A DNA stretch of 60,962 nucleotides from an uncultured Verrucomicrobiales bacterium (lineage in GTDB: Bacteria > Verrucomicrobiota > Verrucomicrobiia > Verrucomicrobiales > DEV007). The stretch spans positions 1 through 60,962 of the forward strand of contig CALKOM010000040.1 of assembly GCA_938091905.1 (NCBI GenBank), given 5' to 3'. This document shows, piece after piece, positions 45,001 through 48,000 of the stretch (position 1 is the first letter of the stretch; every line of letters begins with the position of its first letter). The position numbers are program-made.

Positions 45001-48000
45001 TCTGAACGCTACACCGTTGCCCTGCATGAAAAGACTGGCGCAGATGATCTTGCGGTCACGGAGGGCAACAGCTCGTTGGAAATCACGTTCACCGCAGGTG
45101 GTGGCTGGACGCGAGATTTTACCATCCCTTTCAAAGGCACGATCATGGAATCGATCGCCCGGATTCCACAGGGAGATCGTGGCCGTTACACATTCCGGAT
45201 GGACGTGATCTTCTCTGCTCTTGAGGACGGCGATTGGCCGGGCAATTGGCAGAACTTCATCCCGCGCGAGGCGGGTGGTGGAGCGCTGAACTTCGCCATG
45301 CATCGATTGGGGGGCGATCAACATGTCCGAACCTATAGCCTGCCGCTGGATCAGGCCCTTCTCACGCCTAATGCCCCGGACAACCCCGACGATGTGAACC
45401 CTGGACTTTCTTTTGTCAATCAGGGTGCTTGGGGAGATGGCGGTATGACTTTGCACTATGACAATCTTCGAATCATTGATACGGGCAAAGCGCCTCTCGA
45501 AATCGGTAATCTCACTTTAAACAGTGACGGCGGCGGTGTTGATATCAGCTGGGCTTCGTCACCTGCTCAAGCTTACGGCATCTCAGTCTCTAACGATCTT
45601 ACTGATTGGACGGAGCTGGCCACGGATATTCTTGGAAGCCAAACCAGCAATACGACGACCTACACCGCCGCTGTGGAGGACCTCGCAGGTCAGGAATTCT
45701 ACCGCGTCTTTGTTTCTGGTGCGGCGCCACCGTTGAACGAAGGTTTTGAGGATGGAGTGCCTGGTTGGACAATTTCAACAGGAGCGAGCCATGAAGGAGA
45801 AGTGACCTGGGAGGTTGGAGAGCCCACGAATGGTCCGGGAGCGGCCAAGACGGGTAGTAGCGCCGCTGGCACGGATCTCGATGCTGACTACACGAGTGGC
45901 ACCTGGGTGATTTACAGTTCTCCAGAAGTAAGCCTTGGCCCAATTCTCAAGCCTCTGCTAACATTCTCATACTTTCTCGATGTGGGTGAAGTCTCTGCTG
46001 GTCGCGTAAACATTTTCGGATCGGACGGCTCAGAGTTTTACGCGCCCTCGACACCTGACGAAGAACTGTTCTTTGTCGAAGGCACTGAGGGTTGGCAAGA
46101 AGCGACCTTTGATCTGACCTCTGTGGCCGGAGGTCAGAAAGTGATCCTCCAGTTTGAGTTCATTGGTAACGGAACTGGAGCCAGTTTCTTCATCGACGAT
46201 GTGCTGATTGAAGACGCATCCGAGTAGTTCCTTCTAAGCGATTGATTCAACTGAAACGCCCCGTTCTGCAAAGCAGAGCGGGGCGTTTTTATTTAAAATG
46301 TTTGTTAGGCTTGCACGAAGCCTAAAGGTTAGCAGCCTCAGCCACCACCGCCGCCCTCACCACCGCAGCAGCCGGACTCGGCATTCATCTCATCGACTGA
46401 GGGGACTCGACCTAATTGAAGCGTCTGTTGCAAGAGTTTGGTCACCGTGCTGAAAGTGCCATTCATTTGAGACTCGGCTTCGGCAAAGTCGGAGGCGATC
46501 TCATTCTTCATCACCGTTTCGCGTAAGGCTTCCATCTGCTTGATATCATCATCGTTTGGCTGAAGACCTTCATGGCTCATGCGGTGAAGTTCTTGGCCCT
46601 TCTCCTGCCAAGCCCGGTAGACTGCTTGAGCTTCGGCATTCTCTAAGAACGCTTCAATGTGACCGCGCGCAGCGGCAAACTCAGGCTGATCGACGATGAA
46701 CTGGCAGAGTTCGCGCGATTTCGTATCAATTGTCGGGGTATCTAAAAGATTTTCCATGAGGTTCGTTAGCCTGGGTTCGGAGTGAACGCAAGCGGGCTTG
46801 GCTCTGGCACCTAGCTGACCAGCATGTTGGAAACGATCCTCTGGAGATCGCCGATATTGTAGGGCTTGGAGAGAGCTGCTTGAAAACCGTATTCCCTGTA
46901 GCGAGCCATGACGCTGCCCTCGCTGTAGCCGCTGGAGGCGACCACTCGTGCTTTTGGTGAGATACTGAGAATCTGCTGCATGGCTTCGTTCCCGCCAAGG
47001 TCATCCGGAATGGTAAGATCCATGATGACGAGATCGAATGGTCGCCCCTCTTGATTGGCCCGGATAAAGCGCTCCACCCCCTCGGATGAGGATGGGCAGG
47101 CGACCACATCACACCCCATAAGTTTGAGAGTCGTCGTGGCGAGATCTAGGATAGACTTCTCGTCATCGATGATGAGGATGCGACCCTGCTCCAGGCCGGA
47201 AACGGTTTCGCCTGGCTGCAAGGGAGCGGGCTCGTCCACAGGCTGCTGTGTTTTGCCTGTGGCCGGGAGATAGAAACTGAATTCTGTGCCATGTCCACAC
47301 TTCGACGTGGCGACGACGTGGCCCTGGTGGTTTTTCAGAATGGTAAACGTGGTGGCTAATGCTAGACCGCGTCCCGACTCGTTCGCAGTGTGATAGGGGC
47401 GGAAGACGTATTCCAATTGATCTTCTGGAATCCCAGGGCCCTCGTCCAAGACGGAGACCTTCACATAGATGCCTTCCTCTAACGGGAGCGCTGAATTCTC
47501 GGGACCAGGGACATGATGCACATTCTCCGTAGAGATCGTGACCATACCCCCGTGCGGCATGGAATGGTCCGCGTTGAGAATGAGGTTTTCCAGGACTTGG
47601 CTGATCTGACCTTCGTCAATGTTTGCACTCCAAAGTCCTGGCTTGTTGATAATGCGAGGAACCGATTTCGAACCTCGCAGGTAGTTTTCGGAGCAATGCT
47701 TGATGAGATCCTCGATTCTTGTGATTTTCTTGACCGGGGTGCTTCCTTTGGCAAAGGTTAGGAGCTGGTGTGAAAGATCTTTAGCCCGGAAGCACGCACG
47801 CTCAGCTTCTATGAGCCGTTCGCTGGCTTCTGGTACTTCGGTAAATAGCATGTTTGCTAGGGAGACGTTACCCACTAGTGAAGTGAGAATATTATTGAGG
47901 TCGTGAGCGATACCGCCTGCAAATAGGCTAAGCGCCCTGAAATTCTCTTGCTCAAGGCGCTGGTGTTCCTCAATCATCGAATCGGAGGTCGCGAGTGCTG

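Follow-up and report, generated by a model that had tools for sequence, protein, structure and literature searches.

The question raised by this locus is whether a gene for a YlbF-like protein ends at its in-frame TGA, or whether the UGA is read as selenocysteine (Sec) and translation continues to a stop codon slightly further on. The host is a marine Verrucomicrobiota bacterium, with an assembly in 212 contigs that is 95 % complete. The window, i.e. the whole stretch of DNA that was analysed, is 60,962 nt long.

The YlbF-like gene and its product

The coding features, all on the minus strand, are as follows.

46329..46757, minus strand: coding sequence of the YlbF-like candidate selenoprotein (open reading frame and translation, Com_YlbF match, AF2 model with Foldseek)
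46338..46340, minus strand: proposed Sec codon UGA, in frame, residue 140 (in the alignment column of the first Cys of the C-G-C with which the Cys orthologues end)
46329..46331, minus strand: true stop TAA, two codons past the UGA (DNA sequence)

The open reading frame starts with the ATG at 46757 and its 3' end reads ...GGT GGT GGC TGA GGC TGC TAA. If the UGA specifies Sec, the product is 142 aa long with the tail GGGGG-U-G-C, and if the UGA terminates it is 139 aa long. The DNA and the translation agree with the earlier note on this gene (g01397), which had it continue past the TGA to a 142 aa protein ending in U-G-C.

Residues 11-113 match Pfam PF06133, Com_YlbF, over the gathering score (E 6.2e-15; 56 bits against a cut-off of 23.9), and this is the one YlbF-like gene in the host genome. 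With the AF2 model (mean pLDDT 86.6) as query, Foldseek gave structures of the YlbF/YmcA/YheA family as best matches (2iaz, 6prk_A, 2oeq, 6prh, 2pih and 2oee). A sequence search of the PDB gave a single match, 2iaz (E 0.001). The top match in the NCBIfam search had an E value of 1.6e-6, far under the cut-off of that model.

Probable Sec/Cys alternation among relatives

The TGA of the host gene falls in the column of the first Cys in a C-x(1-2)-C motif that is conserved at the C-terminus of its homologues. In the family-level group to which the host belongs, 134 genomes were searched, 109 contained a match and the tails of 107 were read from the DNA. Most tails (81) are of the form C-x(1-2)-C-x(0-2), 18 carry TGA at precisely the position of the first Cys and 8 are of other types. 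The TGA forms are spread over five genus-level groups (2/6 in g1, 1/54 in g2, 1/1 in g7, 9/11 in g23 and 5/5 in g27). The earlier tally of orthologues had correctly placed TGA at the Cys column, but was an undercount; the Sec/Cys pair that it proposed three residues from the C-terminus is retained here, with 18 TGA against 81 Cys in the column. The 18 genomes are related and not independent, and the truly separate evidence is about five or six lineages. The tree of the family requires at least five Sec/Cys changes, four of them forced by starred branches.

As the genomes are metagenome-assembled and fragmented, the 212 contigs of the host being an example, the TGA could in principle be a sequencing or assembly error, or the gene a recent pseudogene. 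However, independent assemblies share the codon, as does a metagenome contig on which a 97 % identical protein is followed by the identical TGA GGC TGC TAA and the identical hairpin (see below). The database protein P0002 (18 members, 53 contigs) ends at the identical place, with ...EGGGGG, which is the end expected if a gene caller stops at the TGA, and P0003 (83 % identical) also ends with ...EGGGGG. The remainder of the gene is intact and conserved. An error or a pseudogene is thus barely credible.

A wider sample of the phylum comprised 401 genomes, 58 of them with a match, from which 25 new tails were read, plus 20 from the same order. No TGA form was found among these 45 loci read outside the family-level group, a count that does not include 21 of the 58 matches, all from another family-level group (f2). 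Among these sequences, members of the putative Sec/Cys-alternating YlbF-like family were seen in this family-level group of Verrucomicrobiota and nowhere else.

Codons past the UGA

In the host gene, coding potential past the UGA is uninformative because only two codons follow it. The comparison of TGA forms is more telling. In 17 of the 18, the TGA is followed by two or three codons, always including one for Cys, and then by a stop; in the 18th, the contig ends directly past the TGA. The tails after the UGA are G-C-stop, G-C-H-stop, G-S-C-stop, G-T-C-stop and A-C-D-stop, giving U-x-x-stop in the genus of the host and U-x-x-x-stop in other genera. Among the TGA forms, the variation past the UGA includes synonymous changes (GGC/GGT/GGA, TGC/TGT and CAT/CAC) and exchange of TAA for TAG. 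This comparison shows that the trailing two to three codons, Gly/Ala-(Ser/Thr)-Cys-(His/Asp)-stop, are under selection, as expected if translation continues past the UGA.

A hairpin beyond the true stop

Two further features were found downstream of the gene.

46305..46325, minus strand: SECIS-like hairpin in the 3' UTR, 8-bp stem UUAGGCUU/AAGCCUAA, loop CGUGC (sequence, comparison)
about 46254..46286, minus strand: separate G+C-rich intrinsic terminator (ACGCCCCG...CGGGGCGU then UUU), shared with the convergent plus-strand gene

The hairpin starts 12 nt past the A of the UGA, equivalent to 15 nt past its U. The 8-bp hairpin with loop CGUGC that the earlier note had put 15 nt downstream is therefore real, the distance having been counted from the U. 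The earlier report of hairpins at TGA genes and their absence from Cys orthologues can be widened: a hairpin with GU in the loop, 10-19 nt downstream and often with the loop GGUC, is present in 17/18 TGA forms versus 5/101 Cys forms. The exception among the TGA forms is G117, which has a stem mismatch and failed the hairpin test. Of two sisters, the TGA form G135 is followed by the hairpin and the Cys form G126 is not, though the DNA further downstream is conserved.

Among 15 distinct hairpin sequences, pairing is kept at all levels of the stem bar one cell. The loops in TGA forms are GGUC, GGUCU, GGUCUA, GUU, GUG and CGUGC, and the G of the loop GU is 22-27 nt from the U of the UGA. In the canonical SECIS of Escherichia coli fdhF, these loop bases are numbered G23/U24. 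The loop of the host, CGUGC, differs from the GGUC of most other lineages; in G003, which has a 91 % identical protein, the stem is retained, the loop is CGUGU and the spacer is changed. SECIS elements of like shape are found elsewhere in the host genome, with the loop GGUCU in an fdhA-like gene and GGUCG in two FG-GAP/ASPIC-type genes, and a SelW-like selenoprotein gene has a GUG triloop at nearly the same distance from its UGA.

The folding energy of the host hairpin is ordinary (z -0.70; 44/200 shuffles fold equally well). To set the hairpin against the genomic background, open frames of >=150 codons in the host genome were searched past their stops for a hairpin of >=7 bp with GU in a 3-7 nt loop, starting 9-16 nt downstream of the stop; the hairpin criteria of the analysis were fixed post hoc, with the data already in view. 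Such hairpins follow 4/1720 TAA, 6/2323 TAG and 6/2117 TGA codons, and the six TGA cases include the YlbF-like gene and three evident selenoprotein genes. The rarity of the host hairpin is in its combination of position and loop, not in its folding energy.

The earlier note had allowed that the hairpins could be terminators. This is not borne out: a distinct terminator lies downstream, with a T-run that is better in the plus-strand reading, and the hairpins have SECIS-type loops. In an Rfam search at the locus no match reached the gathering score, and the sub-threshold ones fell mostly on the terminator.

Selenocysteine machinery and the reading of the UGA

The host genome contains selA, selB and selD, plus a tRNA-Sec (anticodon TCA) on contig C27. 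SelA was found in 14/18 TGA-bearing genomes. In each of the remaining four, which are 53-80 % complete, there is a SelD with an in-frame TGA, and SelB is over the cut-off in three of them. Some Sec machinery is therefore present in 18/18.

The alternative that the TGA is an ordinary stop, leaving a 139 aa protein that has lost its terminal C-G-C and a hairpin that is either fortuitous or involved in transcription or stability, can draw on the gene callers, which end the protein at the TGA (P0002, P0003), on the ordinary folding energy, and on there being only two codons past the TGA. It does not readily accommodate a TGA column shared by 18 genomes from five genus-level groups, or the retention, via synonymous changes, of a two to three codon tail with its Cys and in-frame stop. 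Nor would GU-loop hairpins then be expected to track the TGA, or the terminator to be a separate structure, or TGA forms to be missing from the 45 loci outside the group and accompanied by Sec machinery in each genome that has one. We consider an ordinary stop very improbable.

The host YlbF-like protein very probably carries Sec at residue 140 in place of a conserved Cys. The Sec reading of the earlier note is thus strengthened by the Cys column, the codons past the UGA, the hairpins, the machinery and the at least five switches. The UGA at 46340-46338 would be decoded as Sec by the SelA, SelB, SelD and tRNA-Sec of the host, and the small hairpin, wholly past the true stop in the 3' UTR, would direct this decoding. 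The predicted product is a 142 aa YlbF/Com_YlbF helical-bundle protein with a disordered tail ending C-C-Gly(n)-U-G-C.

The C-terminal tail and its possible role

46332..46370, minus strand: flexible C-terminal tail, C130-C131-G-G-E-G5-U140-G-C142 (alignment, AF2 pLDDT)

In the alignment of tails, C130, C131 and C142 are conserved and the Gly linker varies in length; the second Cys pair (CC) is 6-10 residues upstream of the terminal C/U motif. The pLDDT is <50 at residues 129-142, i.e. the tail is disordered in the AF2 model. Relatives in f2 have tails rich in Cys, His and Asp.

The gene context gives no clue to function, as far as sequence comparison can tell. The upstream neighbour, a PAS/histidine-kinase/receiver hybrid gene (46811-49699), and the downstream neighbour, a 509 aa gene, are common to the genus of the host only, and clustering of the ORFs within 1.5 kb on either side of 30 loci revealed no conserved neighbours beyond close relatives. 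A scan of nine ORFs in the window turned up no ars gene. Searches of the host genome (95 % complete) for RicT/PSP1 and for RNase Y gave no match, while the controls matched Bacillus subtilis. Because there is no conserved neighbour, RicT/PSP1 or RNase Y to draw on, a metal-binding reading rests on analogy and tail composition. On the composition of the tail and the analogy with RicF (see below), a role in binding a metal or cluster appears somewhat likely. The four-ligand tail (two Cys, Sec and Cys), in which Sec would take the place of a Cys ligand, may bind an Fe-S cluster, a metalloid or a soft metal.

Alternatively, the Sec may be real and the U-x-C or U-x-x-C tail a mobile selenylsulfide/selenolthiol redox arm, not a metal or cluster ligand. 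The model for such an arm is the C-terminal Gly-Cys-Sec-Gly of mammalian thioredoxin reductase. The tail is flexible in the AF2 model, and U-G-S-C or U-G-T-C, found in some lineages, has the UxxC spacing; in PMC13188914, most prokaryotic selenoproteins are described as thiol-oxidoreductase-like with UxxC/CxxU motifs. However, the scaffold here has the helical-bundle fold of YlbF and not that of thioredoxin, and the upstream CC pair is conserved. The tails of relatives are extended by repeats of His, Asp and Cys that are typical of metal binding, and the C-terminal Cys of the sole studied members ligate a [4Fe-4S] cluster, according to PMC6751060. A redox arm is thus rather unlikely.

The position of the UGA raises a further idea. 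Since it is three codons from the end, failed Sec insertion would leave a stable, almost full-length 139 aa protein, and the UGA might serve as a built-in selenium gauge that couples a YlbF-type regulator to selenium status. We regard this as unlikely. If true, selenium-replete cells would make the 142 aa form able to bind a metal or Fe-S cluster, and selenium-starved cells a tail-less form, without two of the four tail ligands and with different or no activity. Repeated Cys/Sec switching would then reflect lineages gaining or dropping the coupling to selenium.

A candidate selenoprotein family

No Sec-containing YlbF, YmcA, competence or PF06133 protein is named in the passages searched of the 2026 review table of prokaryotic selenoproteins (PMC13188914), and no NCBIfam model matched names a Sec-containing YlbF/Com_YlbF protein. 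A literature search of the full text of articles for YlbF with selenocysteine or selenoprotein found no such family. It is well supported by the comparisons made here that Sec-tailed YlbF-like proteins constitute an additional bacterial selenoprotein family, absent from the catalogues searched.

Gene callers cut these proteins at the UGA, and consequently the annotation would be wrong in approximately one genome in six of the group. The locus appears to be a clear case of a SECIS wholly in the 3' UTR, and searches that require an open frame past the UGA miss such genes. As Sec is proposed here in a tail whose Bacillus counterpart ligates a [4Fe-4S] cluster, the at least five switches would provide natural Sec/Cys pairs in which the effect of selenium as a ligand of metals or clusters could be studied in proteins other than hydrogenases and formate dehydrogenases.

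Comparison with known systems

RicF (YlbF) and RicA (YmcA) of B. subtilis belong to the same Pfam family, PF06133 Com_YlbF, and have the same helical-bundle fold as the host protein, for which 6prk_A, 6prh, 2pih and 2oee are among the Foldseek matches. RicF, like the host protein, ends in a disordered tail that contains conserved Cys. According to PMC6751060, the tail Cys of RicF are C134, C138, C144 and C146, and C134 and C146 ligate a [4Fe-4S] cluster. The host tail, CC-Gly(n)-(C/U)-G-C, is likened to these by pattern and not residue by residue. Unlike the host protein, the Ric proteins are not known to contain Sec, and the role of RicAFT with RNase Y (the Y-complex) cannot be transferred, as neither RicT nor RNase Y was found.

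The halo-CC-star protein HcsL (NF041416) is also YlbF-like with a terminal Cys tail, and was the second-best NCBIfam match (E 6.9e-6). The host protein is not a member, as it scores 26.5 bits against a cut-off of 140 and its tail is U-G-C where that of HcsL is Cys-Cys. No Sec form of HcsL has been described, unlike the host family.

In the position of Sec, the closest likeness is to SaoC (NF040734), KCU-star (NF033934) and UXX-star (NF041114, NF041211), where Sec stands within the last few residues in place of a Cys in a terminal Cys motif, as proposed for the host. Their scaffolds are unrelated to that of the host protein, and their NCBIfam models gave no match at E<=10. The absence of NF041114 and NF041211 from these matches agrees with the earlier statement that the protein falls in no NCBIfam family and is not UXX-star, with which it shares only the terminal U-x-x-stop. 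For SaoC, the SECIS is past the true stop, according to the preprint bioRxiv 10.1101/2022.07.06.499078. A Sec within the last few residues means that the SECIS must lie past the true stop, and the same arrangement is predicted here. A metal-ligand role has been proposed for the SaoC, KCU-star and UXX-star families (PMC13188914), and is the role that we tentatively favour for the Sec-tailed YlbF-like proteins.

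The YlbF-like gene and its product

The features that bear on the analysis, in contig positions, are as follows.

46757-46329, minus strand: YlbF-like gene, from ATG at 46757 to TAA at 46331-46329, with an in-frame TGA at 46340-46338 followed by GGC TGC TAA
46325-46305, minus strand: 8-bp hairpin, UUAGGCUU-CGUGC-AAGCCUAA, starting 12 nt after the UGA and beyond the true stop
about 46286-46254, bidirectional: separate G+C-rich terminator, shared with the convergent gene
44698-46227, plus strand: convergent 509-aa ORF, no Pfam match at E<=1e-4
46811-49699, minus strand: PAS/HisKA/HATPase/receiver hybrid kinase of 962 aa, with the YlbF-like gene 53 nt downstream
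49881-54002, plus strand: cluster of further histidine-kinase and receiver genes

On sequence evidence, the YlbF-like protein of the genome under study (G000) is very probably a selenoprotein. The reading of the TGA as selenocysteine (Sec), proposed in an earlier note, is strongly supported by the Sec/Cys column, the codons past the UGA, the hairpins and the decoding machinery. Sequence and translation bear out that the ORF runs past the TGA to the TAA, giving a 142-aa product that ends in ...S-G-C-C-G-G-E-G-G-G-G-G-U-G-C if the TGA is read as Sec. Residues 11-113 match Com_YlbF in Pfam (E 6.2e-15, 56 bits, cut-off 23.9). Matches in NCBIfam are weak and all far below the cut-offs: the best YlbF/YmcA model reaches E 1.6e-6, and halo-CC-star HcsL reaches E 6.9e-6. 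The UXX-star models are not among them, in agreement with the exclusion of that family in the note. The AlphaFold2 model, based on 24 sequences, has six helices and a mean pLDDT of 86.6, with tail residues 129-142 below 50. When it was compared with the PDB by Foldseek, the top matches were structures of the YlbF/YmcA/YheA family, 2iaz, 6prk_A (RicA with RicF), 2oeq, 6prh, 2pih and 2oee. As to the neighbours, the hybrid kinase is common to the genus only, and the 509-aa ORF is conserved in three same-genus loci.

Distribution of the TGA and Cys forms

Homologues (E<=1e-8) were found in 109 of 134 genomes of the family-level group of G000, and tails were read from the DNA of the gene ends in 107, the gene running off the contig in G153 and being cut in G151. 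The tail is C-x(1-2)-C-x(0-2)-stop, mostly C-G-C-H, C-G-C-D or C-G-C, in 81 of the 107. In a further 18, a TGA occupies precisely the position of the motif's first Cys, which confirms and extends the Sec/Cys pair described earlier. The other eight comprise seven Cys-bearing tails (C-C-S-x, E-C-C, C-G-G-D-S-C) and one aberrant tail (G124, ...NYRHDL). No TGA form was present among 45 loci read outside the group (same order, class or phylum).

Tails of the TGA forms by genus-level group (TGA forms/genomes)
g1 (2/6): G000 and G003, U-G-C-stop
g2 (1/54): G080, U-G-S-C-stop
g7 (1/1): G011, U-G-C-H-stop
g23 (9/11): six genomes, U-G-C-H-stop; G125, U-G-S-C-stop; G135, U-G-T-C-stop; G131, contig breaks off right after the TGA
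g27 (5/5): four genomes, U-G-C-H-stop; G120, U-A-C-D-stop

Both the TGA GGC TGC TAA and the hairpin recur unchanged on a metagenome contig whose encoded protein is 97 % identical. Two database protein clusters, one with 18 members on 53 contigs and the other 83 % identical, terminate at ...EGGGGG, as expected if gene callers stopped at the TGA.

Two loci depart from the pattern. In G124 (g23), the sequence leaves that of the family after C-C-G-S-G-G and continues ...RISSGCWPNV... to a later TGA, and may have a frameshifted or rearranged tail. G155 carries a second, partial copy (C22:434244-434420) of the C-terminal 60 residues only, 28 kb from the full copy. Both were left out of a maximum-likelihood tree of the protein cores (tails removed, 117 rows), as were 14 Cys rows shorter than 90 residues after the cut. 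The tree requires at least five Sec/Cys changes, four of them forced by starred branches; as it is unrooted, their direction cannot be read.

The note pointed out that, with only two codons past the TGA, coding potential is of no help. This is true for one genome, but not across the 18 TGA sequences with a readable tail (17 genomes and the metagenome contig), where the codons past the UGA vary synonymously with the peptide kept (Gly GGC/GGT/GGA, Cys TGC/TGT, His CAT/CAC, stop TAA/TAG). This is not how a dead tail downstream of a genuine stop would behave.

Hairpins downstream of the UGA

A stem-loop starts 11-19 nt after the UGA in every TGA form with enough sequence. Among the 15 distinct hairpin sequences, the stems are unrelated between lineages (UUAGGCUU/AAGCCUAA, GGGAACC/GGUUCCC, UGAUCGUG/CACGAUCA, UGUGGCC/GGCCAUA, GCGGUC/GGCUGC, UGGCC/GGCUG and CCGCUC/GAGCGG), with pairing held at all levels but one cell. 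The loops contain G-U (GGUC, GGUCU, GGUCUA, GUU or GUG; CGUGC or CGUGU in the genus of G000), and the distance between the loop G and the U of UGA is 22-27 nt. The same shape is seen in the true SECIS elements of G000: in the fdhA-like gene, a 7-bp stem with a GGUCU loop begins 11 nt past the UGA; in the FG-GAP/ASPIC-type genes, the loop is GGUCG; and in the SelW-like gene, a stem of 8 bp carries a GUG loop whose G is at position 26.

A rule chosen after the data were seen (stem >=5 bp, GU within a loop of 3-7 nt, hairpin beginning 10-19 nt past the codon) was applied to all sequences, with 14 rows lacking the terminal motif or enough sequence set aside. It is satisfied by 17 of 18 TGA forms versus 5 of 101 Cys forms, or by 10 of 18 versus 1 of 101 when a GGUC loop is required; as kin are not independent, the weight of these counts rests on about six lineages. 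In one sister pair, the hairpin is present in G135 (TGA) and missing from G126 (Cys), though sequence further downstream is conserved. The folding energy of the window hairpin alone is ordinary (z -0.70). The concern that the hairpin might be a terminator is answered by the separate terminator further downstream, at about 46286-46254.

In one Cys form (C-G-C-D-H-stop, G140, group g11), a hairpin of 5 bp with a GGUCGG loop lies where a SECIS would be expected; it may be left over from an ancestral Sec form or be due to chance. SelA was found in none of the six g11 genomes.

Selenocysteine decoding capacity

All of the Sec machinery is encoded in G000 (95 % complete, 212 contigs), namely selA, selB, selD and a tRNA-Sec with anticodon TCA. 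Its evident selenoprotein genes, an fdhA-like and two FG-GAP/ASPIC-type genes, stay in frame for hundreds of codons beyond the UGA, and there is a SelW-like gene with C-x-x-U. The FG-GAP/ASPIC-type genes, on C98 and C113, are large paralogues that read ...DDL-UGA-(S/T)F(Y/F)WRQVV..., run 500-580 codons further, and have hairpins starting 9-10 nt after the UGA. A recoded genome was rejected as the source of the in-frame TGA, because TGA is otherwise a common stop in G000, ending 2117 open frames of >=150 codons.

SelA occurs in 84 of the 134 genomes of the group and in 14 of the 18 that bear the TGA form. The four without a SelA match are 53-80 % complete; in all four, the SelD gene itself contains an in-frame TGA, and in three a SelB match exceeds the cut-off. 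Some sign of Sec decoding is present in every TGA-bearing genome. The selenophosphate synthetase of these four (G121, G131, G134 and G135) is therefore itself a selenoprotein; the SelD match of G000 has no stop inside.

Possible role of the tail

We lean towards a role for the tail as a metal, metalloid or cluster ligand. This is favoured by the vicinal Cys pair, variable-length Gly linker and conserved (C/U)-x(1-2)-C, by an invariant Cys18, by the disorder of the tail in the AlphaFold2 model, and by f2 relatives whose tails are long Cys/His/Asp repeats. The main rival, that the tail is a redox selenylsulfide arm, appears unlikely. In the f2 loci (L133-L136, L139 and L141, from small genomes of 2-3 Mb), the short C-G-C tail gives way to such repeats, with H-C-C-H or C-D-C-D runs among them, which from their composition look like metal-binding tails. 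As to a possible arsenic connection, no ars gene was seen among the nine ORFs of the window that were scanned.

Comparison with known systems

RicF (YlbF) of Bacillus is described as having four conserved Cys near the C-terminus; C134 and C146, with one Cys each from RicA and RicT, are ligands of a [4Fe-4S] cluster, and removal of the tail breaks the Ric complex (PMC6751060). Both proteins have tail Cys. However, G000 has a single YlbF-like gene, and neither PSP1/RicT nor RNase Y was found in this 95 % complete genome; the Bacillus complex was therefore rejected as a model.

A Sec-containing YlbF-like family is not listed in the places searched: YlbF, YmcA, competence and PF06133 are absent from the text of a prokaryotic selenoprotein review (PMC13188914), a full-text literature search, supplements aside, found no paper joining YlbF with selenocysteine and, among the papers listed for selenoprotein and YlbF synonyms, none that has both, and none of the NCBIfam selenoprotein models matches the protein. 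The mechanism itself is of a known kind, given the precedents of SaoC, in which Sec is at or near the C-terminus and the SECIS follows the stop, as is probable for the YlbF-like gene, and of the KCU-star and UXX-star families, which share the near-terminal Sec (bioRxiv 10.1101/2022.07.06.499078 and PMC13188914).
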